Source: Candidatus Hydrogenedentota bacterium
Lineage (GTDB): Bacteria > Hydrogenedentota > Hydrogenedentia > Hydrogenedentales > SLHB01
DNA: 64,000 nt
Direction: 5' to 3'
Assembly (NCBI GenBank): GCA_045863295.1
Contig: BTWA01000022.1
Coordinates: forward strand, 1 to 64,000
Made by a program: the position numbers and the translations under genes. Below, one piece after another: positions 1 to 16,685 of the stretch (position 1 is its first letter; every line of letters begins with the position of its first letter). Below the pieces are notes generated by a model that saw nothing but the letters and a program-made list of their open reading frames with translations, was not told the origin of the DNA and did not search any database.

Positions 1-88
1 GATCTCATGACCACAGTATATCACCGTAGGCATAATAAGTTAAAGCAGTCTAATCTCAGCGTTATGCATCGCAGTCGCCTCTTTAGCC

Positions 89-469
89 GTGTACAGCCAG
101 ACTTGTGAATTCCTGGATCCCCAACCATGCGGCGCTGCACCTTTTGACTGCGACGATGTCTGCACCGACTCTGAAGACGTATACGATGATTACAAATGCC
201 GACACACAAGAGCAGTAACGGAAAACAATATGGTCACTAAATGTATGCCCGTGACTCCGCACGACCCTTACGGCTTTACTGGTTGTGATAATTTCCAGGG
301 AAATGCGACTTGGTGCTACAAATACGATGACGACTGTGTGCTTAATCCATTCATGTTTGCCTGCCAGAATCCTCCACAGTATGGGTATCAATGCACCTCT
401 GCATTGACAACGTTGAAAGAACAACCTACGTTTCATGCACTTCTTTCAGGTGTGACCTGCTACTACTAG
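89..469 (+). CDS. Small cysteine-rich (12 Cys) hypothetical protein, probably secreted; 5' end possibly frameshifted (true start may be ATG 7)
   Basis: 126-aa ORF with 12 Cys. In-frame upstream codons 44-88 encode a hydrophobic stretch SSLISALCIAVASLA. Low-GC region. Confidence 0.55.
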   Translation: MYSQTCEFLDPQPCGAAPFDCDDVCTDSEDVYDDYKCRHTRAVTENNMVTKCMPVTPHDPYGFTGCDNFQGNATWCYKYDDDCVLNPFMFACQNPPQYGYQCTSALTTLKEQPTFHALLSGVTCYY

Positions 470-597
470 TCACTCTAGCAACGCGTCGGCACATTGATCG
501 ACCCTGACGTTGTACCCAGAGATCGGACTGACTCGCTCAAGTTTGAATTTGAATTGTGGTTCATGTTTGTAAGTCCTGGCAGCGTTTTGCACTTTGA

Positions 598-1683
598 TTG
601 CATTTACTTTTGTCTACTTCTCACCGCAGTTCATTCGGAATAAGTGGAAGGAAGTTGCGATCAAATGTAGCTAATTTTGAGTATTTGAAAAGGGTGGGTA
701 AGGCTGTGCGAATTCCATCGCGTTCTACTGCATTGACTTTTTGTATCGTAGTAGTATGTATTCTTTGTGTGTGGCTAAGTTCCAGACATGGGATACACGG
801 CGAACGAGCAGTCCATGTTGGCGTAATTTCTGACACAAATAAGCCATTAGATCACACGTATAAATTCCGGAACTTCTCCTTTCGAAAAGCTGAAATCCTC
901 AAAGTTTCGACCTCGTGCGGGTGTACCGCTGCTCAATTTACGTCGGGCGCGATTTGGCCGCTACAAACTTTTGAGATTCCGATTCAGGTCAACGCAAAGG
1001 GCAAGAGCGGACAATTTGAAGTAGATAGCACCGTGTTCTTTAGGTCACATGCCCCTTTACAATTGAAACTCATTGGCGAGGCTTACCCTCTATTGCCGGA
1101 TGCGTTGGATTTTGAAACAGTCAAGCGGGGAGAGGAAAATGTAAGAACAATTACCGTAAATAGAGCACTCAATTCCTACTCCGCTGCGATTGATGACATG
1201 AATTCTTCCTATTGGGTGCTAACTCAAATCCCCCTTTGGTCCAGTGCTAGCAACTCCCTACTAGAAGTAAAATTGCTACCTCACGTACCTTATGGGCCGT
1301 TCGCCGTAAATATGGTTATTGACTTCGGCCAGGAAAAGAAACGCATTCAGGTGAAGGGCCATGTTCTTCAACCTGTGGAAGCACGGACTGCATTGGTCTC
1401 AATTGGCAGGATCACGGCTGCAGAAAACTTGCGTACTCTAGATTACTACTCTCCTTACGACGAACATATTCAGTTTGTCGACGCAGATTCATCATGTAAG
1501 TGTTTGCATCTTGTGCCTGAAGAAATCAAAGACGGCACTTTACCTCTAAAAGTTGTGTTTGACGAATTGCCGAAGTCAGGCATCTTCAAGGATACGATCA
1601 AAGTGACCTTGAAGGTAAAGGACGAGACATACACCATTCCCACACCTATTTATGGATATGTTCCGATTTCAGAAGAGGGATGA
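598..1683 (+). CDS. DUF1573 domain-containing protein (Ig-like, N-terminal TM anchor)
   Basis: ILKVSTSCGCTAA motif typical of DUF1573; TM segment FCIVVVCILCVWL. Start uncertain (GTG 706 possible). Confidence 0.75.
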   Translation: MHLLLSTSHRSSFGISGRKLRSNVANFEYLKRVGKAVRIPSRSTALTFCIVVVCILCVWLSSRHGIHGERAVHVGVISDTNKPLDHTYKFRNFSFRKAEILKVSTSCGCTAAQFTSGAIWPLQTFEIPIQVNAKGKSGQFEVDSTVFFRSHAPLQLKLIGEAYPLLPDALDFETVKRGEENVRTITVNRALNSYSAAIDDMNSSYWVLTQIPLWSSASNSLLEVKLLPHVPYGPFAVNMVIDFGQEKKRIQVKGHVLQPVEARTALVSIGRITAAENLRTLDYYSPYDEHIQFVDADSSCKCLHLVPEEIKDGTLPLKVVFDELPKSGIFKDTIKVTLKVKDETYTIPTPIYGYVPISEEG

Positions 1684-1687
1684 CTCA

Positions 1688-1740
1688 GTTGCGGCAGGGT
1701 TTCAGGACCCTGCTGCATGGCATGATCAGAATGGTCTCCT
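1688..1740 (+). repeat. REP-like palindrome, partial copy of the composite repeat at 2167 and 3243
   Basis: GTTG-CGGCAGGG-tttcagga-CCCTGCTGC followed by atggcatgatcagaatggtct, as in the other two copies. Confidence 0.7.
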
Positions 1741-1811
1741 CGCGCTGGCTCGCTTTCCTGTTAATTCCTGTGTCGCACTTTCAGTGCTTGGCATTGGGGT
1801 GTCGCGGGGAT

Positions 1812-3599: not shown

Positions 3600-4202
3600 C
3601 TACTGTGGGTCGCTCAAACGGCATGGCGCGAATTCGATGCCGTGGAAACGGCATTGGAATCCTTCGCCTACGGGGCTGCAGGCGTAGAGGCCGGCCTCGA
3701 TCGTTTGTTCCGGGGCGTGCAGGCGGGCGATTCGCATTTGCCGCCAGTGTTGGCCGTCTTCAGCGTGTTCGACGAGGTAGTCGTTGCCTTGCCGGGTGAC
3801 GCGGTAGGCCATGGTGTTGCACGGACGGTCGATGTCTTGGGTGGCCCAGTCGGAGTATCCGGCGTTTGTGACCACGGAGCCGAGCCGGCTGAGCGTGGGG
3901 CTTTCGAATTCGCTGGACACCTTGATCCACTGATCGGCACTTGAGCGAATCATGAGGCCGCACTGGTCGTATTGGGACTCGGGTTCAAACGCCACGCTGG
4001 CGGTCATCGTGAAGTCCCCTTCTATGGGTGCGAGCAGGGCGTGGCCGTTGTCGCGCTGAAATCCGTAGTGGGTGCGCTGCCAGAAGTCCGTGCTGGGATC
4101 GGTGTGGATGTGCAGGCCCTGTTCCACGCGCCAGCGGGTGGGTTCGTTCAACCAGTGGAATCCGGCGGGCAGCGGACCGGCGTGGAAGTCGTGCCGGGTC
4201 AC
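3600..4202 (-). CDS. DUF1349 (Ree1-like, concanavalin-A fold) protein
   Basis: TDFWQRTHYGF.RDNGH, YDQCGL, LGSVVT.GYSDW and GLYACSP motifs; 4-bp overlap with the upstream gene. Confidence 0.9.
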   Translation of the reverse strand: MTRHDFHAGPLPAGFHWLNEPTRWRVEQGLHIHTDPSTDFWQRTHYGFQRDNGHALLAPIEGDFTMTASVAFEPESQYDQCGLMIRSSADQWIKVSSEFESPTLSRLGSVVTNAGYSDWATQDIDRPCNTMAYRVTRQGNDYLVEHAEDGQHWRQMRIARLHAPEQTIEAGLYACSPVGEGFQCRFHGIEFAPCRLSDPQ

Positions 4203-5413
4203 GCGCCCACCTGCATGCGATTCCGCAAACCGGCCAGCATGCGATCGCGGTCGATCGGTTTGACGTTGGCCACGATGTCGTCGCGCATGGCTTTGCCTTG
4301 TTCGGTGTTTTGGGGGTAGGACATGAAGTTGAGATCGAGGCCGAGGCGCTGGGCCGCGCGGTGGGCGATGACGGGCCAGACGGCGCCGATGTCGCCGATG
4401 ATGGGGATGCTACCTTCGTGGCGGGCGAAGCCGGACATTTCCATGCGGAACGGGACCTTGAACAGTTTGGTTTTGGGGAGGCCGTCGGCGATGGCTTGTT
4501 GCACGGCGCCGCCGGTTTGTTCCGCTTCGTAGGCTCTTTCCAGCGCGGGATCGAGGTCGATCCGGATCAGGGTTTTGCTTTCAAGCGAGTAGGTGTAGTG
4601 GCCTCTCCAGGCGGACCACATGCCGTGGCCGGTGTACAACTCAAACGGGCCGTCGTGGATTTCCTGAGTGAGCGCGACGGCGGATTCGATGATGACCTCC
4701 GCGCTGTCGAGCATGCGGGCGAGGCGCGTGGCGCGTTCGTGGAGGCTGATGCTGTCGCCGATGCTGAGACCGACGGCGCCGCCGCCGACCAATTGGGGAA
4801 TGGTGACCATGACGGGTAGGCCGAGCTTGGCGCCGATGCCCAGCATGGTGCGATCGTCGCAGCCGAGGCCGGCGACTTCTTCAAACGTCATGCCGTTGGA
4901 TCGCGCGAGCACGGCGATTTCATCGGCCAGCAGTTCGAGCCAGAGCCCCATGGGGTAGCCGAGGTTGCCGGCGGCTTTGATGATGGTTTTGCCTTGGGCC
5001 TGTTTGAGTTTTTCGATGAGTGCAACGTCGACGGGCATGTGTTTCGCGATGTGTGCGAGGGCCGCTTCGTGGAGCAGGGTGAGTTCGAATTCGCCGCCGC
5101 GCGGGAGGATGGCCGGGGCAAGGCCCAAGGGTTCGCCGGGGCATCGCTTGACGCGGTCCAGTGTGCCGCCCAATTCGTGGGACACGACGGCGGAACTGGT
5201 GGAGACGCCGTCGATCATGCCTACGCGCATCATTTCGGCGATGAGGGTGGTGACGCCTTCGTGGAGGTTGGGGCCGCTGCCGGTGACGACGACGACTTTG
5301 CCGCCACGTTCCTTGGCTGTGACGATTCGGCCGACGGCGGCATCGATTCGGCGGCTCGTGGTTTCGGCGAGGCCGTTTTCGATGGATTCGATGAACGTGT
5401 GATCGATGGCCAT
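4199..5413 (-). CDS. Deoxyhypusine-synthase-like NAD-binding fold protein, function unknown
   Basis: VVVVTGSGPNLHEGVTTLIAEMMRVGMIDGVSTSSA, MLGIGAKLGLPVMV and IIGDIGAVWPVI resemble DHS segments. ATG 5413 has GGAG RBS. Confidence 0.6.
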   Translation of the reverse strand: MAIDHTFIESIENGLAETTSRRIDAAVGRIVTAKERGGKVVVVTGSGPNLHEGVTTLIAEMMRVGMIDGVSTSSAVVSHELGGTLDRVKRCPGEPLGLAPAILPRGGEFELTLLHEAALAHIAKHMPVDVALIEKLKQAQGKTIIKAAGNLGYPMGLWLELLADEIAVLARSNGMTFEEVAGLGCDDRTMLGIGAKLGLPVMVTIPQLVGGGAVGLSIGDSISLHERATRLARMLDSAEVIIESAVALTQEIHDGPFELYTGHGMWSAWRGHYTYSLESKTLIRIDLDPALERAYEAEQTGGAVQQAIADGLPKTKLFKVPFRMEMSGFARHEGSIPIIGDIGAVWPVIAHRAAQRLGLDLNFMSYPQNTEQGKAMRDDIVANVKPIDRDRMLAGLRNRMQVGA

Positions 5414-5429
5414 GGTGTGCTCCATTGAT

Positions 5430-6197
5430 TCAGCGGTAACTGGGTTGGCCGCGGTCACGCAGCATTTGTTCGGCGCGTGCGACGTCTTCGTGTGTGTCGA
5501 CGCTGAAACCGTAGAAGGCCTGGTCTTCCAGATGCGATTCGGCCACATGAATGGTCAGGCCGTGTTCGAGCCAGCGGAGTTGTTCCAACGCTTCGACGCG
5601 CTCAAGGACGGTGGGTTCGAGTCGGGTGATCCGGGCGAGGGCCTCGGCGCGGTAGGCGTAGGTGCCGACGTGTTCGTAGACACCGTGGTCGACGGCTTCG
5701 CGCGGATAGGGGATCAGGGACCGGGAGAAGTAGAGGGCTCGTTGTGCGCGATCGACGACCACCTTGACCACGCCGGGGTTTTGCAGGTCGTCGGCGTGGG
5801 TGATGCGGACGCGCAAGGTGGCGATGTCGAGCCCGGGGGTTTCCAGCAGGGGCCGGGCAGTTTCGTCGATCATGGCGGGGCTGATAAAGGGCTGATCGCC
5901 CTGGATGTTGACGACGATGGTTGCGGAGAAGGCAGCCGCGGCCTCGGCCACGCGATCGGTGCCGCTGGGGTGTCCAGAGCGTGTCATGACGGCGTTGCCG
6001 CCGAATTGAGTGACGGCATCGAGGATGCGGTCGTCGTCGGTGGCCACGACGAGGTGGTCCAACAGGGTCGAGGCCATGCAGCGTTCGTAAACGCGTTGAA
6101 TCATGGGGAGCCCTGCAATTGGGACGAGAGGCTTGCCGGGGAGCCGGGAGGAGCCGTATCGCGCGGGAATGACTCCGAGCACGTTCAGGTTTGCCAT
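5430..6197 (-). CDS. kdsB: 3-deoxy-manno-octulosonate cytidylyltransferase (CMP-Kdo synthetase) family
   Basis: IPARYGSSRLPGKPL, VATDD, SGTDR, NIQGD, ALYFSRS.IP, LEQLR and VDT motifs. Confidence 0.92.
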   Translation of the reverse strand: MANLNVLGVIPARYGSSRLPGKPLVPIAGLPMIQRVYERCMASTLLDHLVVATDDDRILDAVTQFGGNAVMTRSGHPSGTDRVAEAAAAFSATIVVNIQGDQPFISPAMIDETARPLLETPGLDIATLRVRITHADDLQNPGVVKVVVDRAQRALYFSRSLIPYPREAVDHGVYEHVGTYAYRAEALARITRLEPTVLERVEALEQLRWLEHGLTIHVAESHLEDQAFYGFSVDTHEDVARAEQMLRDRGQPSYR

Positions 6198-6229
6198 GCC
6201 ATTCTCCCCCGTCTCTGGATTGGATTTAT

Positions 6230-6258
6230 ATTTTAGCTTATTTAAGCGTCATTTTCAA
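6230..6258 (-). promoter_or_regulatory. Putative sigma70 promoter for the kdsB operon
   Basis: Minus strand TTGAAA(6258-6253)-N17-TAAAAT(6235-6230) in an AT-rich intergenic region. Confidence 0.6.
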
Positions 6259-6279
6259 TCCCATTTTGTTAATTATACA

Positions 6280-6308
6280 TTGCTTTATGTGAATATAAAT
6301 ACTATTAT
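6280..6308 (+). promoter_or_regulatory. Putative sigma70 promoter for gntR-symporter (possibly leaderless)
   Basis: TTGCTT(6280-6285)-N17-TATTAT(6303-6308); ATG at 6315 is 7 nt downstream. Confidence 0.55.
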
Positions 6309-6314
6309 TAATGC

Positions 6315-7022
6315 ATGCTTGAGTCTGACGAACTTAAAATGTCGATGGCGGATACTGTCGCCGATCGCATACATCTGGATATCGCCAACAGCGGCCTGAA
6401 GGCGGGCGAATTATTCATGAAGGGCGACCAAGTAGCGGCCCGCTATGGAATTTCGCGGACGGTGGCGCGCGAGGCGTTGAGCCGGTTGCATGCGATTGGT
6501 GTATTGGAAAGCAGACAGCGGGTTGGCCTAATCGTGACGCGTCCGGACCCGGTAAAGCTGTCGGAACGGTGGGTGCCGATGTACTGCCGTGCGGCGAACC
6601 GGCAAGACTTTCAGGACCTGGCGCAGTTGCGATATGCGTTGGAAATGGGTTCAATCGATCTGGCGGTGGCCCATGCGGACGAGGAGCAAACCGGGCGGCT
6701 TTCGGCACTGGCCCAGGAATTTGAAGCGGCGGCTCAGGACACGGGACACACACCGGAAGCGGACCGATTGGATCTGGCATTTCACACGTTGATATTGAAG
6801 ATGACGAGGAACCCGCTGATCGAAGGCATGCATCGGGTGCTTTCCGAGTATTTTTCGGCTTCGACCGAGATGGATCCCCGGGGGGACGCTTCGAAGGCGA
6901 TTCGAGACCATCACATGATTGCGGACGCTATCCGCCGTCGGGATGTGGAACTTACGCGAAGTATGTTGCGGCTGCATTTGGGCGAAACGCTGGAACCTGG
7001 GGACGTGGACAGCAGGGGGTAA
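6315..7022 (+). CDS. GntR/FadR family transcriptional regulator (FCD domain)
   Basis: wHTH YGISRTVAREAL..L...G; FCD motifs D.AFH, RNP and DHH.I.DAI. Confidence 0.92.
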   Translation: MLESDELKMSMADTVADRIHLDIANSGLKAGELFMKGDQVAARYGISRTVAREALSRLHAIGVLESRQRVGLIVTRPDPVKLSERWVPMYCRAANRQDFQDLAQLRYALEMGSIDLAVAHADEEQTGRLSALAQEFEAAAQDTGHTPEADRLDLAFHTLILKMTRNPLIEGMHRVLSEYFSASTEMDPRGDASKAIRDHHMIADAIRRRDVELTRSMLRLHLGETLEPGDVDSRG

Positions 7023-7030
7023 ACGGCGCC

Positions 7031-8617
7031 ATGGGCCATTTGGGCATTCTTGATGTTCTGGAGATTGTGTTTTACTTCGTCGCGCTGTTGGGAATCGGGT
7101 GGTATTTTTCGCGGCAATCCCGTAACACGGACGAGTATTTTGTGGCAGGGCGTTCGTACCCGGGTTGGCTGATAGGGTTTTCGCTGTTTGGCGCGACGAT
7201 CAGCTCGATTACGTTCATGGCGTATCCGGCGGATGCGTACAAGACGGGGTACTTGCGGTATCTCATTTGCCTGATGTTGCCGGTGGGGGTGCTTATCGCA
7301 TCGCGCTATTTCGTGCCGTTTTTCCGGCGGGGCCGGATCACTTCCGTGTTTGAGTATCTTGAGGGCCGGTTTGGTCCCGCGACGCGGGTGTATGGGGCCT
7401 CGGTTTTTATTCTGGCTCAGTGCATTCGGTTGGCGATGATCCTGTATCTCACGGCGATATTGATGCAGGCGGTAACGGGTTGGGACGCGACCTGGTGCAT
7501 CTTGATAGGCAGCGTAACGACGGCCTACTACACGGTGGCGGGGGGAATCAAGGCGGTCATTTGGACGGATTTCGTGCAGTCGGTCGTGCTCACCGGGGGC
7601 GGTTTGCTGGTGCTTGGGGTGATTGTGTTCAAGTTGCCAGGCGGTTTCGCACAGCTTTTCTCGGTGGCCCACGAACATGGCCGGTTTGGATTGAACGAAC
7701 TTGGGGCGGACGGAGCGACGCACGCGGTTCCGTGGGGCGTTTCGTTGAGCCACAAGACGGTGTTCATGCTGCTGATTGTCGGCTTGTTTCAATGGTTGGC
7801 GGAATACAGCACGAACCAGGAATCCATTCAGAAATACTGCGCTTCAAAGACTGCCCGGGACGCGCGGCGGGCGATGTGGATCTGTTGCTGGTTTTGTGTG
7901 CCGACGTGGGGCTATTTCATGCTGGTGGGCACGGGGCTGTTTGTGTTTTATCAGCAGTTTCCCGACGGGAACGCGGCGGAGATGTTGACAGGCGCGAGAA
8001 AGGCCGAGGAGATTCTCCCCTACTTTGTCGCGACGCAACTGCCCACGGGTCTTGTGGGGATCGTGGTTGCGGCGGTGTTGGCGGCCGCGATGTCGAGCAT
8101 GTCGTCGGCGATGAATTCCATTTCGGCGGTGGTGGTCACGGATCTTTACAAGCGGCACTGGGTGCGGGAGCGTGATGACCGTCACTACGTATCGGTAGCC
8201 CGTTGGGTGACGGCGGCGAGCACGGGTGTGATGATTGGCGGGGCTTATTGGCTGCTGGCGTCGGAACAAAAAACGTTGCAGGATTTGTGGACCGAATTGC
8301 AGTCCATCGCGGCCGGCGGATTGCTTGGTTTGTATATGCTAGGCTTTTTCACGACACGCGGAGATGGGCGTGCCGTTGCCTTGGGGATCGCGTTTGCGGT
8401 GGGTTTCTCTGTGTTGATGTCGCTGGATGGGTTGGGCTGGCTCCCGGAGGGGATGTCCTCGGCGATGCACCCGTATTTTGACGGATACTATACGGGCATC
8501 GTTGGCAATGTAGTCATGTTCGCGGTTGGCTTTGGAGCCGCGAGTATATTGCCGCAGCGGCCGCGCGATCTCACGAACCTTACGGTCTGGACGCAAGACA
8601 ATCGGCCGTTGGACTGA
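7031..8617 (+). CDS. Sodium:solute symporter (SSS), sugar or sugar-acid type
   Basis: EYFVAGRS, SITFMAYP, FEYLEGRFG, GGIKAVIWTD and AAAMSS motifs; many TM helices. Confidence 0.93.
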   Translation: MGHLGILDVLEIVFYFVALLGIGWYFSRQSRNTDEYFVAGRSYPGWLIGFSLFGATISSITFMAYPADAYKTGYLRYLICLMLPVGVLIASRYFVPFFRRGRITSVFEYLEGRFGPATRVYGASVFILAQCIRLAMILYLTAILMQAVTGWDATWCILIGSVTTAYYTVAGGIKAVIWTDFVQSVVLTGGGLLVLGVIVFKLPGGFAQLFSVAHEHGRFGLNELGADGATHAVPWGVSLSHKTVFMLLIVGLFQWLAEYSTNQESIQKYCASKTARDARRAMWICCWFCVPTWGYFMLVGTGLFVFYQQFPDGNAAEMLTGARKAEEILPYFVATQLPTGLVGIVVAAVLAAAMSSMSSAMNSISAVVVTDLYKRHWVRERDDRHYVSVARWVTAASTGVMIGGAYWLLASEQKTLQDLWTELQSIAAGGLLGLYMLGFFTTRGDGRAVALGIAFAVGFSVLMSLDGLGWLPEGMSSAMHPYFDGYYTGIVGNVVMFAVGFGAASILPQRPRDLTNLTVWTQDNRPLD

Positions 8618-8626
8618 ATCGCCGAT

Positions 8627-10921
8627 TTATTTGGGCGGCGTGGCCGACACGGTGATGCCCTGGGGAACCGATGCAGACCCCACGTCTGTAATTCGAAAAT
8701 TGAATCCCCAGTTCATGCCGCTTTGGCCGATCTTCAATAGGATTGTCGATGTTCCTTCAGGCAGTGTGACCGGCACGATATCGTCATCCACCGAGACGGT
8801 GCGCTCGATCTTGTTGTTCCAGACTTCCTTGCCGTTCAGGAATGCCTTGATGGAATCGTTGCTGCCGAGGCGGAACTCCACCTCTTTGGGACCGTCGCTG
8901 ACCGTTACCCAGCAAAGAGCGTAAGCGCACACCCATTCGGTATCGGCGAATTCATTGAGTAGATCGACGTAGGCGGTCCATTCGGGCGTGCTGTTGTGTT
9001 TCCATGCGACTTGGGATTCCCCTTTCCCTTTGTACGTGGCGGTAATGTCGATTGATTCCTCGGGCGGGTAGACTCGGTCGTGTCCGTCCATGCCGAGGTT
9101 GTCGAACGGTCCACAGAGCATCCATTCGTTGACGAATCCTTGTTCGCGCGCGAACCGGTCAGCGATGCCGACCATCGTTTTCTCCTTGGCAATGGTTGCC
9201 AGGAGGAAATCTTCGTTCGTGGCGGCCATCCGATCGATGGTGTCATTCAGTCGGTTTACCTGTGCCTGATACTGTTCGTACGACATGGAAGCGTCCGCGC
9301 GGCGGATGTTCAGATAGGCATCCATCTCTTCAAACGACAGTTGGACCATCTTGAGTCTCTGCATGATGCTGTTCGAGACGCTTCGCTGCAGCGCGTTTTC
9401 GATGGCTTCCCGGCATAGGTCGACGTGTTCCGGCTTGAAGTATTTCGGGTAGTCCGCCAGCCCCCACTCCACTTTGCGATCGATGCCGTTGAACACACTG
9501 CCGAGCGTTCGATAATACGTGGCCATGTCTGATGCGGCTTCGCCGAAGAATGCCTGCAACATATCTTCGAACAGATCCTTTCCATCGAGTGACGAATCCC
9601 ACATGCATTGCGCGGCGATGTAGTAATTGGGAAAGTAGGCGGCCCAGGAGTCCTGGCCTTCGAAGGACACGCCGGTAACCCCGATGGATTTGTAGACCGC
9701 CATTTCGCGCGCGTGCGATTCCCACATCGGCCACGGAAGCCCGCCGCTGTAGGGCACGGGGTCGTATTCGTAGATGTAGACGTGGTTTGTAAACGACGTC
9801 CATCGTTCAAGCAGATCCCGGAACCCTTGGCGCGACGGACAGCCGTCATCGCCGATACCGTGTGCGGCGCAATAGACACTGGTGGTCGCGAAGATGCAGG
9901 TATTTGGATTGACTTCTTGATTCACCGGCGGATCGGTGTGGTTTCTGTTGTAGGCGTATGTGGTCACCAGGAGGTCCGGGTATTCATCCCTGAGGCCGTC
10001 CAGTACCTGATTCAAGAAGAGTTGGTAGCGATCGGCGATGCTGGGGAGTCCGCCGCTATCGATCCGGCCGGAATCGAGGGCCTTGCAGTTGTCGCATTGG
10101 CAGAACTCGTGATTGTCGTCGGGACAAAGCGAATACGCCACGGTGCCGGGATTCTGTTTCATGTACTTTTTTATTGCTTGCACCACGAACGCAACCGATT
10201 CGGGGTTGGATGTGCAAATCTGTGTTGTTTTGCGATCGCCATCTATAAGTGCGTAGAGGTCCGGTCGATCCTTAAATGACGCAAACTCGGCGAGCGTGTT
10301 TGTCAGGTTATGGCCGTGCTGCACCGCGGGGCGGTGCATACGATTGCGGCGGCGCCACTCGGCAAGCCGAACCGAGCCTTCGGACGAGCAGCCGTAGGCG
10401 TACCAAATGTCTCTGAAGGTAAAATCCGGTTGGCCTCGGCGAATGCCGGACGGAATGGCGACGTCTTTCGAGTACGGCAAACATTCACCGATTTCGCCGG
10501 GCATAATCCAACGGCAACCGAGTTCGCGAAGCAACGTGAATATGCCGTGACTGGTTCCCAACGAACTGCCGCCAAGCACATAAATTGCCTCGGGCGTGGC
10601 GTGAATTTCGAATGCCTCGCTGGAAGGCAATTGCGTTTCAATTTTCAGATGTGGGAAGTGTTCGGGTTCTCCGACGTATATGGGCACCATTCCAGGTTGC
10701 ATGTTCACGGCAAGAGTTGCACCGCTGATGCGGTTGATTATTGCGACGAAGTCGTTGGCGGCCTCGGTGTTCATGCCCTCGGCATCGTTGTCCAATACGA
10801 TGCATGCGGTGGGCTGTCCGTTGCGAACAATGGGGATTGTTTCCGCATTGGATACGACCGCGGTACATAAAGCCCATGTGGTTAGGACGAACGCGCTGGA
10901 GACGCGATGGATTGTTCGCAT
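8627..10921 (-). CDS. Secreted DUF4838 domain protein with C-terminal beta-sandwich module
   Basis: Signal peptide; LGCRWIMPG, QICTSNPE and SLCPDD..FCQCDNC motifs. ATG 10921 has GGGGAG RBS. Confidence 0.8.
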   Translation of the reverse strand: MRTIHRVSSAFVLTTWALCTAVVSNAETIPIVRNGQPTACIVLDNDAEGMNTEAANDFVAIINRISGATLAVNMQPGMVPIYVGEPEHFPHLKIETQLPSSEAFEIHATPEAIYVLGGSSLGTSHGIFTLLRELGCRWIMPGEIGECLPYSKDVAIPSGIRRGQPDFTFRDIWYAYGCSSEGSVRLAEWRRRNRMHRPAVQHGHNLTNTLAEFASFKDRPDLYALIDGDRKTTQICTSNPESVAFVVQAIKKYMKQNPGTVAYSLCPDDNHEFCQCDNCKALDSGRIDSGGLPSIADRYQLFLNQVLDGLRDEYPDLLVTTYAYNRNHTDPPVNQEVNPNTCIFATTSVYCAAHGIGDDGCPSRQGFRDLLERWTSFTNHVYIYEYDPVPYSGGLPWPMWESHAREMAVYKSIGVTGVSFEGQDSWAAYFPNYYIAAQCMWDSSLDGKDLFEDMLQAFFGEAASDMATYYRTLGSVFNGIDRKVEWGLADYPKYFKPEHVDLCREAIENALQRSVSNSIMQRLKMVQLSFEEMDAYLNIRRADASMSYEQYQAQVNRLNDTIDRMAATNEDFLLATIAKEKTMVGIADRFAREQGFVNEWMLCGPFDNLGMDGHDRVYPPEESIDITATYKGKGESQVAWKHNSTPEWTAYVDLLNEFADTEWVCAYALCWVTVSDGPKEVEFRLGSNDSIKAFLNGKEVWNNKIERTVSVDDDIVPVTLPEGTSTILLKIGQSGMNWGFNFRITDVGSASVPQGITVSATPPK

Positions 10922-11193
10922 GTGTGCACTCCCCCATTCGCGGGCGATGTTTCCGGTTTGAACCCGCGCGCTCGCCAGAATAGAAGAAACGCGCACACGC
11001 CACAAGATTCCGAGGGAATGCGTGGGGGTACCGTACACTTAACAAAGAGGGTTGCGAATTTTGCCAAGTCGGTTCATTATACGGATGGGGGACAAACTAT
11101 TTAGGGCGCCGGACCCACGCCGGCGCGCTCGATGCACAACAGATTCGGGGTACCCTCTGCCCTGCCCATCTGTTTGCGCGATAGGGGGACGTT

Positions 11194-14100
11194 ATGAGTG
11201 TATTGCGTTTTGCTTTGGGGGCCGTTGTCATGATTTCCGCAACCCTGCCAGGATTTGGCGAAAGTTCCAGTCAGGTCCGGGATCTGTTTGCCAATCCACC
11301 GCGGGAGTACAGTTCTTCTCCTTTGTGGGTGTGGAACGATGACCTGACCGAGGATCAGGTACTTGCGACCTTGCGCGATTTGGCGGCCCAGGATGTGAAG
11401 CAGGTTTTTGTCCATCCTCGCCCCGGGCTCATGACGCCCTATCTTTCCGACAGTTGGTTCCGCTTATGGAAAGCGGTTCTCCGTGAAGCAGACGTGTTGG
11501 ATATGAACGTCTGGATTTACGACGAGAACTCCTATCCATCGGGATTTGCAGGTGGGTTCGTGCCCAAGGCGATGCCGGAGTCTCATGGGCTGGGTCTGAA
11601 ACTTACGGAAACCGACACCGTACCTGCTTGGGATGACGCGACCGTCGCCATCTATCGGCTTTCTGATTCCAATGCGGTCGATGTAAGTGAAGCGGCCCGG
11701 TCGGGGTCGCCTCTGGGCGCGGGCCGATACCTTGTGGCCGCGACAGAAAAGTCGAAATCCACACCGTGGTTTGCTGGTACGAACTACGTCGATCTGTTGC
11801 GGCCCGGGGTGACGGAGAAATTTCTGGAGATCACGCTGGGCGCATATGAGCGCGAGATTGGTGCGGAGTTCGGCAAGCGTGTTCCCGGTTCGTTTACCGA
11901 TGAGCCTCACCTTGCGCCTGCCGGTGGATTTCATTGGACGCCTGATTTGCCTGAGCAATTTGCGGCGCGGCGCGGGTATTCACTCATGGAGACGCTGCCC
12001 AGCCTGATTCGACCGATAGGCGATTACCGTCGGGTGCGGCATGATTATTACCGGACGTTGCTTGAACTGTTCATTGAGCGCTGGGCGAAGCCTTACTACG
12101 ATTATTGCGCCAACCATAATCTGGAGTTCACGGGACACTACTGGGAACACGAGTGGCCCAAGTGCGGTTATGGCCCGGACAACATGGCCATGTATGCGTG
12201 GCATCAGCGACCGGCGATCGACACGCTGTTCAATCAGTATGACGAAGGACCGCATGCGCAATTCGGCAATGTGCGTGCGGTTATGGAACTGGGGAGCGTC
12301 AGTAATCAACTCGGACTGAAACGGACGCTGTGCGAAGCGTACGGCGGCGGCGGATGGGACCTCCGGTTTGAAGACATGAAACGCATCGGGGACTGGTTGT
12401 ACGTGCTTGGTGTGAATACGCTGGACGAACACCTTTCTTATATCACCATGCGCGGCGCGCGGAAATACGATTATCCGCAGTCGTTTTCGTATCACGCATC
12501 CTGGTGGGATAGCTATCACGTGATGGCCCGCTACTTCACCCGGCTCTCGGCCGCCTTGTCGCATGGAGCGCCTGTGCAGGAGACCCTGGTTATCGAACCA
12601 ACAGGCACGGCGTGGATGTATCAATCTGCGGATGACCGGGAGCATCTGGAGCAATTGGGAAACACGTTTCAGAAGTTGGTAACCGATTTGGCCAAGGCCC
12701 AAGTGGAGTTTGACCTTGGTTCAGAAGATATTATCGCGCGGCGTGGGCGCATTGACGGCGGTCGATTTGTCATAGGGGAACGGGCTTACCGGACGGTGGT
12801 ACTCCCGTCACACATGGAGACGTTGAACGAAACCACGTTTTCCCTGTTGAGCCAATTCATCCAATCCGGCGGAAATCTACTGATCGTAGGCGAGCCGGCG
12901 TTAACACGGTTGGATGGCGTCGCGAGTGCGGAAGCGGCGGCATTCGCCGGTGAGCCGGGCATATCCAAAGTTGCCGAAGATGTGCTCGCGGCACAGCTGC
13001 TGGCGCTGGGGGCCAATCATTTCTCCATTGCCTTTGAGGAGGTTTCCGCAGGCCAGCCGGTCTTTCACCAGCGTCGCCGATTTGACGATGGCGAGCTTCT
13101 ATTTGTGGTGAATACGAGTAATACAGAAGGTGCGAAAGGAACTGTCCACTCTGCCTGCAAACGCGTTGAAAAGTGGGATTTGGAACGTGGCACGACGGGT
13201 TCCTATGCCTTTGAGTCCGATGCATCCGGCGTCCATGCGTCGATTGAATTGCCACCGTGCGGGAGCCTGCTCCTGTTTCTAGGGGACTCATCCGGTGACT
13301 CTGCCACCACACAATCGGGCACGCGGACTTTAGTCGCGGCGAGCGGCGAGACAGCGGTCAAGCGGCTTTCGCCCAACGTGCTGACCCTGGATTATCTTGA
13401 CCTGAAGATTGGCGACCAGACGTACGAACGTGTCTTCATGTACGAGGCGGCCCGGAAGGCATTTCAGAGCATCGGGCTCGAGGAAGATCCCTGGGATCAC
13501 GCCGTGCAATTTGGCGATGAATTGGTTTCCCGCGTTGTGCCGCCCAATGACGGGTATGAGGCGACGTACCGTTTCACGTTGGAAGGTGAGGTGGCGGGCC
13601 CTGTGCACGTCGTGGTGGAACGGCCCGATCTATACACCATCACCTGCAATGGACAGGTTGTACAGGCGCTGCCCGGGGAATGGTGGCTGGATCGAGCGTT
13701 TGGCCGTATCGACCTCACCAGCGCAATTCGCGAGGGTGAGAATACGGTCGTACTCAAGGCATCTCCCATGACGATGCTGCACGAGATCACAGCCATTTAT
13801 GTGCTGGGCGACTTTGCTTTGACGGCAAGCGAATCCGGCTTTTCGATTGGTCCATCCAAGCCGCTGGGCCTTGGCCCGTGGAACGCCCAGGGCCAGCCCC
13901 TGTATGGACATGACGTGTCGTATTCTCAGACATATGTAATTTCAGACCGTTCGAAGCGCCACGTGGTCAAACTTCCGGACTGGTATGGGAGCATCGCGAA
14001 GGTGCTGGTGAATGGCGAACTGGCGGGCCATGTAGGCTGGCAGCCTTCGGAATGCGATGTTTCTTCGCTTCTAAAAGACGGCGAGAATCGAATTGATGTG

Positions 14101-14274
14101 ATCGTGACCGGTACACTGAAGAATACGTTAGGGCCTCACCACGGTAACCCGCCGTTGGGCATTGCCTCTCCGGGGTCGTTCCGGAAAGGCGCGGAAGGCG
14201 GTGTGCCGAAGGGCGCGGGGTATCACACGATTGGCTACGGATTGATGAAGTCATTCGAACTCTATAGGGAATAG
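11194..14274 (+). CDS. Secreted glycoside hydrolase, GH106 (alpha-L-rhamnosidase)-like
   Basis: FANPP.EY..PLWVWN, HPRPGL, YDENSYPSGFAGG and FTDEP motifs; signal peptide. Confidence 0.75.
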   Translation: MSVLRFALGAVVMISATLPGFGESSSQVRDLFANPPREYSSSPLWVWNDDLTEDQVLATLRDLAAQDVKQVFVHPRPGLMTPYLSDSWFRLWKAVLREADVLDMNVWIYDENSYPSGFAGGFVPKAMPESHGLGLKLTETDTVPAWDDATVAIYRLSDSNAVDVSEAARSGSPLGAGRYLVAATEKSKSTPWFAGTNYVDLLRPGVTEKFLEITLGAYEREIGAEFGKRVPGSFTDEPHLAPAGGFHWTPDLPEQFAARRGYSLMETLPSLIRPIGDYRRVRHDYYRTLLELFIERWAKPYYDYCANHNLEFTGHYWEHEWPKCGYGPDNMAMYAWHQRPAIDTLFNQYDEGPHAQFGNVRAVMELGSVSNQLGLKRTLCEAYGGGGWDLRFEDMKRIGDWLYVLGVNTLDEHLSYITMRGARKYDYPQSFSYHASWWDSYHVMARYFTRLSAALSHGAPVQETLVIEPTGTAWMYQSADDREHLEQLGNTFQKLVTDLAKAQVEFDLGSEDIIARRGRIDGGRFVIGERAYRTVVLPSHMETLNETTFSLLSQFIQSGGNLLIVGEPALTRLDGVASAEAAAFAGEPGISKVAEDVLAAQLLALGANHFSIAFEEVSAGQPVFHQRRRFDDGELLFVVNTSNTEGAKGTVHSACKRVEKWDLERGTTGSYAFESDASGVHASIELPPCGSLLLFLGDSSGDSATTQSGTRTLVAASGETAVKRLSPNVLTLDYLDLKIGDQTYERVFMYEAARKAFQSIGLEEDPWDHAVQFGDELVSRVVPPNDGYEATYRFTLEGEVAGPVHVVVERPDLYTITCNGQVVQALPGEWWLDRAFGRIDLTSAIREGENTVVLKASPMTMLHEITAIYVLGDFALTASESGFSIGPSKPLGLGPWNAQGQPLYGHDVSYSQTYVISDRSKRHVVKLPDWYGSIAKVLVNGELAGHVGWQPSECDVSSLLKDGENRIDVIVTGTLKNTLGPHHGNPPLGIASPGSFRKGAEGGVPKGAGYHTIGYGLMKSFELYRE

Positions 14275-14333
14275 GCGATCGCAGATGAAGGCACGGTGAA
14301 GGCCGGACACGGGGTCTCGTGTCCGGCCACAAC

Positions 14334-15236
14334 TTATACGAGCGTCTGCACCAGTTGTTCAACGAATGCGCGGGCTTTGCGGGCTTCTTCCTGCAATTCA
14401 GGAAGTGTTCCGGGCTTGAGGCACTCGATAATGAGCGGCCCCTGGCGAAATCCGCCTTGGGCAAGCCTGGCAAGCACTTTTGCAAAATCCACTCTGCCTG
14501 TGCCGGGGGTCAAATCCACAATTTTTGGATCCTGGTAATCCTTTACGCTCATACCCGACACAATCCCGTCCACATCGTTGGCATCGTCGACGGGATTTCG
14601 CTGGCCGTCGGTGTAATAGTAGATATTACCGGGGTCGTACCAGAGCCGGAATCGCTTATGGTTCACACTCTCAATGGCTTTACGGCAATCGAGTCCGGTG
14701 ATGTTTGTGCCGCCATGCGGCTTTACGCTGATGTCCAGGCTTTTCTCATCGGCGTAGGCGCAGGATTCGGCGATGGCTTTGTAGTAGGGCACGGCGAGTT
14801 CCGGTGTCCCCACTCCGCCCATCATCAAATTGGCGACGCCTGCAGCGACGCAATTGTCAATGAGGGTGTGCATTCCCTTGATGCCTGCTTCCACCGACTC
14901 CGCCGACGGGATATCGCCGCCATAGGCCGAAGGGAGACCTAATCCCCGCTGGCTGCACTGGTACCCGATTTCCGCTGCTTCCTCCAGCGTGGTGGCGGTG
15001 GAAATTACGAGGGGATTGCGTCCGGTGGTGGTCATCAGTCCGGCATACTTGAAACCCGCTTCCGCGATGGCGTCCAGCGCCACCCTGTAGTCATGGGCGG
15101 CCCACGGCCGTGTATAGCAACCGATCTGCCAACGATTGGAGGTCTGTTCCACTTGCGCGATTGCCGGGAGCGCGGATGCAACCGAGGCAACGCGCGCCAT
15201 AAAACTTCGTCGGCCAAAAACGCTTGGACGGTTCAT
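14334..15236 (-). CDS. Sugar phosphate isomerase/epimerase (AP endonuclease 2 TIM barrel), Tat-type leader
   Basis: GRRSFM leader; KPHGG, YDPGN, VKD, PGTGRVDF and IE motifs. Confidence 0.85.
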   Translation of the reverse strand: MNRPSVFGRRSFMARVASVASALPAIAQVEQTSNRWQIGCYTRPWAAHDYRVALDAIAEAGFKYAGLMTTTGRNPLVISTATTLEEAAEIGYQCSQRGLGLPSAYGGDIPSAESVEAGIKGMHTLIDNCVAAGVANLMMGGVGTPELAVPYYKAIAESCAYADEKSLDISVKPHGGTNITGLDCRKAIESVNHKRFRLWYDPGNIYYYTDGQRNPVDDANDVDGIVSGMSVKDYQDPKIVDLTPGTGRVDFAKVLARLAQGGFRQGPLIIECLKPGTLPELQEEARKARAFVEQLVQTLV

Positions 15237-15242
15237 GACGTA

Positions 15243-16493
15243 TTATCCTTCCCTAATCTCGTGTGTCTGTGGATCAAAGATCATTCTCTTGCCCGAGTCG
15301 TATGCCTGCATGGCCATGATTACCGCCACGGCATGTTGGTAACCCGCCTCAATGGACGCGTGTGGCGTGTTACGGGACCGGATGCATTGCAGCCAATCGA
15401 GCATATGATCCGGGCGTGGGATCTGATCAATGGGTTTAGGTTCCGCGACACACATCTTGTCGGGTCCGGCACCTTCGCCTGTGAGCATGGGGCGATCCCA
15501 ATTGAGCAGATCGAATGCGCCGTACTGACCGTAGATCTTGAACGCATTGCCGCCGCCGTTGCCGAAGTTCGTGGAGTAGGTGGCCATGAAGCCCTCGGGA
15601 TATATCCAAGTGGCCTCGACGTGGTCCGGGCAGGTAAAACCATAGTCGTCTTTCCATGTAAAGGTGCCGCCCTGACAAACGCTGCTAACAGGAAATTGCG
15701 CGCCGGTAATGAAGTGAACCAGGTCGATATAGTGACTTCCAAATCCGGGAACCGGACCATCGGAGAATCCGCGATACCCGTACCAGCCTGAATAGAGGTT
15801 CATATCGAAGGGCCGCGGCGGCTGATTCATCAGAAATTCGTTCCAGTCGACGTCTTCCTGTCGCACTTCCTTCAGATATTGGTACCAGTAGGGTCTCCAG
15901 CCGTTGCGGTGCTGTTCGATCCGGCTGACCGAGCCGAGAATGCCGGTCTTAAAAAGTTCGTTTGCGCCGACCATGCCGGGGAGACTACGAAGTTGCGTGC
16001 CTACCTGCACAATGACTCCATTGTCCCGCACGGCCTGACATGCGTCTTTCACTTCTTGAAAATGGGTACCCAGAGGCTTTTCGACGTATACGTCTTTGCC
16101 GGCTTCCGCCGCCGCCTTCAGATGGGCGGGATGCTGGTGGTCACATGACGCGATGGTGACCGCGTCTACATCCTCCAGAGCCAGCAAGTCGCGGTAGTGA
16201 GAAAACTTGCGTGCTTCAAGGCCATACCAGTCCTTGCACAGATTTGCGGCCTCGTCCTGTTTGACTTTCCAGGGATCGCAAACCGCCGTGATGGCGATGT
16301 TCTGTTCGGCGGCGTGAGCGTTGATACCCATCATGTGCGTGCCGATACCCCGGCTGCCGCAACCGATGATGCCGATCGCGATGCGGTCGTTTGCCCCCAC
16401 AATTCGGGCATAACTCGCGGCCGACATCGAAAATGCCGTGACTCCCGTGGCAGCGGTTTTCAGGAACTGCCTGCGATTCTCCGAGTAGTTCAT
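15243..16493 (-). CDS. Gfo/Idh/MocA oxidoreductase, Tat-type leader
   Basis: NRRQFLK, GANDRI.IGIIGCG.RG, EKP and QVGTQ motifs. Confidence 0.93.
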   Translation of the reverse strand: MNYSENRRQFLKTAATGVTAFSMSAASYARIVGANDRIAIGIIGCGSRGIGTHMMGINAHAAEQNIAITAVCDPWKVKQDEAANLCKDWYGLEARKFSHYRDLLALEDVDAVTIASCDHQHPAHLKAAAEAGKDVYVEKPLGTHFQEVKDACQAVRDNGVIVQVGTQLRSLPGMVGANELFKTGILGSVSRIEQHRNGWRPYWYQYLKEVRQEDVDWNEFLMNQPPRPFDMNLYSGWYGYRGFSDGPVPGFGSHYIDLVHFITGAQFPVSSVCQGGTFTWKDDYGFTCPDHVEATWIYPEGFMATYSTNFGNGGGNAFKIYGQYGAFDLLNWDRPMLTGEGAGPDKMCVAEPKPIDQIPRPDHMLDWLQCIRSRNTPHASIEAGYQHAVAVIMAMQAYDSGKRMIFDPQTHEIREG

Positions 16494-16685
16494 TTGCTTG
16501 ACTCCCCCGTTCGATAGACGCACCGAGGTTCCCCGTCGCGAGTGATTCGCGACCCGTCGGTCGTCTCTATGTATCGTACTCCGTTTTTCTGGAATGCGCC
16601 AAGGGATTCTTCTTTTCAGGCGAGTCGTGCTACACTCCGATCACTTCCCCCCGTGTGCAATCGCGACTTATTGGGAGACTCCCCG

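Follow-up and report, generated by a model that had tools for sequence, protein, structure and literature searches.

A conserved protein of the deoxyhypusine synthase fold, linked to CMP-Kdo synthetase, in a likely Kdo scavenging cassette of Hydrogenedentota

Why is a synthetase that activates Kdo (3-deoxy-D-manno-octulosonate) with cytidine monophosphate (CMP) encoded beside a predicted sugar-acid importer? Kdo is the conserved anchor sugar of lipopolysaccharide (LPS), and its synthesis is regarded as essential and cell-autonomous. We analysed a five-gene cluster in a 64,000-nucleotide stretch of Candidatus Hydrogenedentota DNA (the window; contig BTWA01000022.1 of assembly GCA_045863295.1), in which the CMP-Kdo synthetase gene kdsB (here kdsB2), a gene for a protein that we call X and a DUF1349 gene diverge from genes for a FadR-type GntR regulator and a sodium:solute symporter (SSS). 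The original prediction took the cluster for an undescribed salvage or catabolic route, in which an imported Kdo-like acid is activated with CMP and then oxidised, epimerised or cleaved by X. That interpretation is partly supported. The X-kdsB pair is a real, conserved and apparently undescribed step of Kdo metabolism within a familiar type of scavenging operon, and a scavenging role of the cluster is highly probable. The whole explanation that we favour, in which the cluster imports Kdo-type acids and X interconverts Kdo and 8-amino-Kdo (Kdo8N), falls somewhat short of an even chance.

We analysed the surroundings of X in other genomes. kdsB lies directly beside X in 49 of the best 80 of 524 confirmed genome loci, in 63 of the best 80 of 264 metagenome loci and, with the window's own counted, in 28 of the 30 best Hydrogenedentota loci; the arrangement is more than chance. 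The tight linkage of X to kdsB, SSS and GntR genes, on which the original prediction depended, was found in other genomes, with GntR genes near X in 13 of the 80 genome loci. Three contexts of X recur: cassettes for import, in which SSS, GntR and BNR sialidase-like genes occur; catabolic operons; and the core LPS operon of Synergistota. The family is large and tight, as 3922 of 8000 scored sequences were X homologues, the corresponding Atlas cluster has 3704 members, and few full-length representatives are left at 50% clustering; the closest named homologues (71–75% identical) are labelled Candidatus Hydrogenedentes/Hydrogenedentota. A full-text literature search, which worked at the level of titles and abstract openings and had most subscription journals outside its scope, found no paper describing the X family or the X-kdsB pair, in agreement with the claim that the pathway was undescribed. 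A rare arrangement was seen in Bacteroidales records and one similar metagenome contig (L110, L112, L118 and L309), where X has no adjacent kdsB and lies among genes for LPS glycosyltransferases, Kdo/WaaP-kinase-family proteins and lipid A acyltransferases. The single longer hit, an apparent KdsB-X-BNR fusion (P0271), has internal deletions and a truncated X; it resembles a frameshift-joined call and was not used.

Where does the Kdo of the host come from? In the genome of the window (G000, 96% complete), none of kdsA, kdsC and kdsD scored over the cut-off anywhere, and the five-gene cluster contains no aldolase. The genome carries waaA, lpxC and a second, housekeeping kdsB (kdsB1) adjoining pyrG, so the X-linked kdsB is not the sole copy. 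Of the 'salvage or catabolic route' proposed originally, these findings point to salvage, for LPS, more than to catabolism in this genome. In a single-contig genome (G049) kdsA and kdsD were not found either, the same state as in G000. The suggestion that kdsA had been deleted from behind kdsB-pyrG was dropped, since in 20 kdsA-positive relatives kdsA is not with pyrG and sits with kdsD. The genome of the window also encodes a third, NeuA/SpsF-like cytidylyltransferase within a polysaccharide locus (G000:C2:200524-201099).

We extended the analysis to 94 Hydrogenedentota genomes, each at least 90% complete; these are related metagenome-assembled genomes (MAGs), and counts overstate their independence. 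X was found in 60 and kdsA in 31 of them: 52 had X only, 23 kdsA only, 8 both and 11 neither (a weak 67-residue hit in G029 was scored as absent in this tally). Families f1, f3 and f9 each hold both X-only and kdsA-only genomes. waaA is present in 87 genomes, including 48 of the 52 X-only ones, and 58 genomes have waaA with no kdsA found. Close orthologues of the SSS (at least 58% identity, E < 1e-205) occur in 38 genomes; X is present in all 38, and the 34 X-negative genomes have none. The simplest reading is an auxotrophy covered by import, and the cassette is the likely Kdo supply of these Kdo auxotrophs. The main text of a Hydrogenedentota genome paper (PMC10866078) does not mention Kdo or LPS. 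Over the analysis as a whole, split kdsB or X frames, due to frameshift or assembly error, were seen in three genomes (L026 of G012, G074:C155:29975-31131 and G178:C1:2019834-2020365).

What kind of protein is X? No Pfam family was assigned to it, PF01916 did not match at E ≤ 0.1, a sequence search against solved structures gave no useful match, and searches of Pfam, NCBIfam and the Protein Data Bank (PDB) returned neither iron-containing alcohol dehydrogenases (Fe-ADH) nor DegT aminotransferases. Only the N-terminus matched known profiles, weakly and far under their cut-offs: 24.5 bits against 250 for the GSU2086 family (NF052581, the nearest by profile), 19.5 against 410.8 for the TIGR00300 cyclodeaminase and 14.3 against 304.25 for deoxyhypusine synthase (DHS; TIGR00321). 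In contrast, the AlphaFold2 model of X (pTM 0.87) closely resembled, by VIA-align, the AgrE ornithine cyclodeaminase (Z 16.1, rmsd 3.5, 218 residues aligned), DHS (Z 15.7, rmsd 3.6, 249 residues aligned), which also gave the top Foldseek hits, and the LOR/SDH protein 3c2q (Z 15.1), with sirtuins far lower (10.7). As judged from this model, X has the DHS/ornithine-cyclodeaminase fold, and the DHS-fold label given to it originally holds by structure, not by sequence. An alignment of 123 sequences shows conservation of 97% or more at four histidines, K314/K316, R323, R331 and a group of acidic residues; via the GSU2086 profile, H51 and H79-E80 map onto the two histidine-containing N-terminal motifs of AgrE. 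The catalytic lysine of DHS sits in an SWGK motif, which we saw in two DHS-family proteins and which is missing from X. K314, K316 and R331 of X would fall in the stretch matching the SWGK region, and the profile-profile probability of X with DHS was 1.8%, against a DHS profile of 2 rows only. Both DHS and the AgrE-type cyclodeaminase borrow a hydride and then return it while an amine is exchanged.

The fold suggests two candidate cofactors. Passages of PMC13524815 report that the C-terminal cyclodeaminase of AgrE/ArgZ and that of the LOR/SDH type use a nickel-pincer adenine dinucleotide, and that epimerases are among the known nickel-pincer enzymes. The gene of the nickel-pincer insertase, larC, comes next after X-kdsB in one metagenome contig and in 7 Synergistota genomes that are related. 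No larC was found in 9 of 36 X genomes, among them all five gut Bacteroidales MAGs; in these MAGs the conserved residues of X are the same. Because of these five, a nickel pincer is possible and not required for X, and we infer NAD+ as the default. Hydrogenedentota are uninformative as a co-occurrence test, as larC is in 90 of the 94 genomes irrespective of X.

The best-supported lead to the reaction, omitted from the original list of oxidation, epimerisation and cleavage, is a positional swap of X with KdnB and KdnA in Synergistota. X was found in 50 of the 81 Synergistota genomes sampled. Among 20 long X loci, 12 run kdsA-kdsD-waaA-X-kdsB-elm1 (11 of these show msbA-lpxK, one has two inserted genes and one has X split), two have waaA-X, and in six X stands alone. 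We also fetched 18 waaA loci from the 29 X-negative genomes with waaA; in 14 of these waaA is followed by genes for an Fe-ADH and a DegT-family aminotransferase. The top solved match of the aminotransferase is KdnA (5k8b; E 1.7e-92, full length), with the runner-up at 2.6e-51, and the Fe-ADH of separate kdn cassettes matches KdnB and one other Fe-ADH only. KdnB and KdnA make Kdo8N from free Kdo in Shewanella, as passages of PMC4402001 and PMC5125639 describe. With kdnA-like genes defined by E < 1e-80, 35 genomes have X only, 27 kdnA only, 15 both and 4 neither; X and/or kdnA is thus present in 77 of 81, and 2 of the 4 with neither are also without waaA. In a tree of KdsA, KdsD and LpxK from 28 operons, the genomes with X in the slot fall in two separate clades. 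The sister of two X-kdsB-larC genomes (G175) has no X: its waaA is joined to elm1 via larC, and a kdsB-kdnB-kdnA cassette lies elsewhere. Two other genomes without X (G205 and G207) have waaA-elm1 order and kdnBA with a kdsB elsewhere.

Two further observations were made in this phylum. In one clade the LPS operon includes larC, whether or not X is there too (L192:9505-10662, L195:5320-6750, L190:9188-10771 and L234:6780-8051). kdnA-like genes occur in 42 of the 81 genomes (within G128-G209), either in the LPS operon or in kdsB-kdnB-kdnA cassettes (for example L236:6379-8735 and L285:3890-6200). Their presence suggests that 8-amino-Kdo LPS may be common in Synergistota, an anaerobic phylum, and challenges a passage in a review that calls Kdo8N exclusive to Shewanella.

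We asked if the synthetases of the two modules differ. KdsB2 is 42% identical to KdsB1 (contig C6), and all 13 of its solved-structure matches are KdsB-type enzymes. In a quick tree (102 of 174 rows, with only two outgroup lineages; a random 30 of 75 'X_other' and 20 of 47 'X_LPS' rows, plus that of the window), KdsB2 clusters with X-adjacent KdsBs of several phyla. The X-adjacent KdsBs, from five or more phyla, are separate both from KdsB1 and from the Synergistota KdsB that is linked to kdn (support 99). Since the X-linked and kdn-linked KdsBs form distinct types, each tailoring module has its own synthetase. KdsB2 retains the canonical Q206, and the glutamine of the LEQL motif is kept in 138 of 138 X-linked rows and replaced by methionine in 27 of 27 kdn-linked ones. 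The kdn-linked subtype (for example L236:2524-3250), with LEML and other fixed changes in all 27 rows, is possibly specialised for Kdo8N, judging by these substitutions. A literature search on the KdsB residue equivalent to Q206, a putative contact of Kdo C8, found no passage.

X-kdsB also occurs where Kdo appears to be degraded. In an Oscillospiraceae locus (L122, 34-8834), genes for a tripartite ATP-independent periplasmic (TRAP) transporter, X, kdsB, an N-acetylneuraminate lyase (NAL)-family aldolase, a ribokinase-like kinase, an arabinose 5-phosphate (A5P)-isomerase-like SIS protein, RbsD and YhcH together look like a complete Kdo catabolic operon, which reads as Kdo to D-arabinose to A5P. 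L115 and L301 have a gene for L-fucose isomerase. In L115 and L322, genes for FrlB-like deglycases adjoin X, which hints weakly at amino sugars. In two genomes where waaA was not found, one of them G129, X-kdsB stands ahead of catabolic genes of the aldolase/arabinose type. It is kept in G129, G123 and G100 (loci L122, L115 and L080), in which neither kdsA nor waaA was found. Because kdsB stays beside X in such genomes, X may need the CMP-sugar.

In the mechanism that we propose, the FadR-controlled SSS would import Kdo and Kdo8N freed from the LPS and glycans of other cells, and KdsB2 would turn the imported acids into CMP-sugars. The half-life of CMP-Kdo is 34 min at 25 °C. X would oxidise C8 by means of a hydride carrier that it binds tightly, either NAD+ or a nickel-pincer dinucleotide, swap water and ammonia at the C8 aldehyde/imine and then re-reduce it, and WaaA would take the CMP-sugar product into LPS. 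In the Kdo8N direction, X would take over from KdnB and KdnA in the LPS operons of Synergistota. In the Kdo direction, it would remove the amine ahead of aldol cleavage in catabolic operons; this would be useful because cleavage of Kdo8N should leave an amino-pentose, an unlikely substrate for the arabinose enzymes. We chose the alcohol/amine exchange at C8 because it unites the amine chemistry of the fold with the slot shared with KdnBA. X may interconvert Kdo and Kdo8N by redox-neutral hydride shuttling, probably on the CMP-sugar, a proposal that we hold to be somewhat less likely than not; dependence on NAD and action after CMP activation are both presumed. A bolder version is doubtful. In it X is a one-enzyme 'hydrogen-borrowing' aminase/deaminase, possibly with a nickel pincer, for the exchange of hydroxyl and amine at C8 of CMP-Kdo; it replaces KdnA and KdnB and lets auxotrophs and degraders recycle Kdo8N, while most of Hydrogenedentota depends on scavenged Kdo for its LPS, and Kdo8N is widespread among anaerobes and not limited to Shewanella.

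Several observations weigh against the explanation that we favour. On the side of supply, ten kdsA-negative, waaA-positive Hydrogenedentota genomes have no X found (G014, G015, G024, G029, G031, G052, G053, G060, G061 and G073), and must have either another Kdo supply route or assembly gaps. In addition, kdsA and kdsD adjoin each other in 19 of the 20 kdsA-positive relatives that were fetched, and a single gap in an assembly could therefore conceal the two genes in any one genome. On the side of the reaction, a true kdnA was not found in Hydrogenedentota, which leaves Kdo8N use there unsupported, and the Fe-ADH of the Synergistota slot matches KdnB (5k8c) only as a lower hit. Of the 50 X-positive Synergistota genomes, 15 also have kdnA, which was accompanied by kdnB and its own kdsB in 11 of 12 fetched cases (one contig was cut); kdnBA would be redundant in these genomes if X itself makes Kdo8N. 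KdnA and KdnB use free Kdo, according to the passages on these enzymes, so amination needs no CMP. The glutamine/methionine split among KdsBs fits X acting after activation, and fits equally an X unrelated to Kdo8N.

The main confound is that the either-or pattern of X and kdnBA may reflect KdsB alone, because each module brings a kdsB and every LPS maker needs one. Indeed, the X-adjacent kdsB was the sole hit in 4 of 5 X-only genomes tested, and the fifth added one partial, weaker hit. KdsB alone, however, leaves unexplained the exact placement of X-kdsB between waaA and elm1 in two clades, and the fact that X stays intact, at times as waaA-X without kdsB. A test of X against kdnA in a second phylum failed: of 351 Bacteroidaceae genomes, X turned up in a single one, which was the seed.

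Much of the same evidence could be read in another way, with X as a CMP-Kdo epimerase or other mass-neutral isomerase. In a Leloir-like route, a stereoisomer would be imported, activated by KdsB, epimerised on CMP and used or cleaved. This reading accounts best for kdsB having stayed next to X, both in catabolic operons and where no waaA was found in the genome, and larC after X-kdsB would suit a nickel-pincer epimerase. In Synergistota, X would make a Kdo variant as an alternative to Kdo8N, which accounts better for the 15 genomes with both X and kdnBA. However, the two closest folds of X act on amines, not carbinols, the slot shared with kdnBA is not predicted by an epimerase itself, and we know of no natural Kdo epimer in LPS. 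We consider an epimerase unlikely, and its Synergistota form equally so.

It is improbable, though consistent with all three contexts of X and with the KdsB confound, that X is a housekeeping helper on free Kdo, such as an anomerase, a ring-form interconverter or an NAD-dependent enzyme for anhydro-Kdo/lactone repair, which feeds KdsB and the aldolase. The main reason for X-kdsB to join the operon of Synergistota would then have been the canonical KdsB that it supplies. A literature passage describes KdsB as acting on the minor beta-pyranose form of Kdo, and X stands without a neighbouring kdsB in 31 of the 80 genome loci, some cut by contig ends. Such a helper would nevertheless duplicate the YhcH and RbsD-type anomerases already in catabolic operons and leave unexplained why kdsB is retained in genomes with no waaA found, and most LPS makers manage without X, as the Bacteroidaceae illustrate. 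The anti-correlation of X with kdsA in Hydrogenedentota could also mean that X is a new de novo Kdo synthase in place of KdsA, an idea that we find scarcely credible. Of 36 X genomes outside Hydrogenedentota, 25 have kdsA, for which reason we rejected X as a universal replacement of KdsA; moreover, kdsA and X share a Synergistota operon, X travels with importers, and its fold is not that of an aldolase. X as a stand-in for kdsC was rejected as well, since kdsC scored over the cut-off in 4 of 4 other X genomes tested.

We compared the cluster and X with known systems. Sialic-acid scavenging operons combine NanR, SSS or TRAP import, NanA, NanQ/YhcH and NeuA/SiaB; to our knowledge, nan operons have no X-like step. 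The FadR regulator, importer and CMP-ulosonate synthetase are all in the cluster, and X relatives add BNR sialidase-like, NAL-family aldolase and YhcH genes, but the synthetase is KdsB and the downstream genes point to D-arabinose. The KdnB/KdnA pathway of Shewanella oneidensis (PDB 5k8c, 5k8b) resembles X-kdsB in the Synergistota slot after waaA and in having a kdsB companion, though not in the window; it uses two enzymes, an Fe-ADH and a pyridoxal phosphate aminotransferase, on free Kdo, whereas X is one unrelated DHS-fold protein that is found in import and catabolic operons too. The AgrE/ArgZ–LOR/SDH cyclodeaminase (TIGR00300; 6lrf, 3c2q) is the top structural match to X, with both histidine motifs lined up, and differs in that X is far under the TIGR00300 cut-off, sits in a sugar-acid context and also occurs where larC was not found (the 9 of 36 genomes above). 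DHS (PF01916, TIGR00321; PDB 8put, 1dhs) has its fold in common with X, which is without SWGK, is far under the DHS cut-off and was seen in no polyamine or translation-factor context. The GSU2086 family matches X at the N-terminus and is likewise found in sugar-phosphate clusters; X scores only a fraction of its cut-off, and the family has no named function in NCBIfam. This DHS-fold family occurs in heptose-type sugar-phosphate clusters and Synergistota LPS operons (L187, L192, L193, L234 and L348), and in one case in the same cluster as kdsB-X (L103:1857-9173), and is possibly another branch of the fold that acts on sugars.

The features of the locus are listed in Table 1; all five open reading frames are present, in the arrangement that the original prediction gave. 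As it had claimed, DUF1349 and X overlap by 4 bp (4199-4202), and X and kdsB are separated by 16 bp (5414-5429). An alternative start at 5548 would give a longer X overlapping kdsB, and the homologues do not support it; for gntR, the ATG at 6315 fits the alignment of relatives and that at 6339 does not. The spacer described as an AT-rich divergent promoter region contrasts with its two flanking arms, which have GC contents of 0.64 and 0.58, and holds three sigma-70-like sites facing kdsB against 1.8 expected from shuffled sequence. An AT-rich box at about 6297-6310, just 5' of the gntR start, is kept across an alignment of 10 spacers and is a candidate operator. NanR is the top NCBIfam match of the GntR protein, under the cut-off. 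DUF1349, originally taken as a pathway member, is an accessory one: it is near X in 4 of 80 genome loci, with the order kdsB-X-DUF1349 repeated once, and within 1.5 kb of X in none of the 29 other best Hydrogenedentota loci. Beside the cassette (8627-16523) lie glycan-use genes for a DUF4838 protein, a GH106 rhamnosidase-like enzyme, a sugar-isomerase TIM barrel and a Gfo/Idh/MocA oxidoreductase. The first 1800 nucleotides of the window (1-1800; GC 0.41-0.48 against about 0.58 downstream), with a DUF1573 gene, were possibly acquired separately.

Table 1. Genes and promoter region of the X-kdsB cluster, in window coordinates
Feature	Position	Strand	Basis or size
DUF1349 (concanavalin-like) protein	3600..4202	-	Pfam PF07081, 221 bits
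X, predicted Kdo-tailoring enzyme, DHS/ornithine-cyclodeaminase fold	4199..5413	-	404 aa
KdsB2, CMP-Kdo synthetase, X-linked lineage	5430..6197	-	TIGR00466, 209 bits (cut-off 155)
AT-rich divergent promoter region	6198..6314	.	117 bp, GC 0.30
FadR-type GntR regulator (GntR + FCD domains)	6315..7022	+	Pfam PF00392 + PF07729
SSS, predicted Kdo-type sugar-acid importer	7031..8617	+	TIGR00813, 220 bits (cut-off 184)

The genomes with waaA and no kdsA found point to a phylum-wide loss of Kdo synthesis with reliance on import. Such reliance could bear on why Hydrogenedentota stay uncultured, and suggests a simple medium supplement. The analysis also assigns an orphan family of about 3,700 members to one defined step in the metabolism of Kdo, for which the reactions to assay are few. 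Should the Kdo8N reading be right, X would be an enzyme of the DHS fold that works on a sugar, and a natural catalyst that turns an alcohol into an amine in one enzyme; biocatalysis and the modification of LPS charge are the fields to which this would be of interest.

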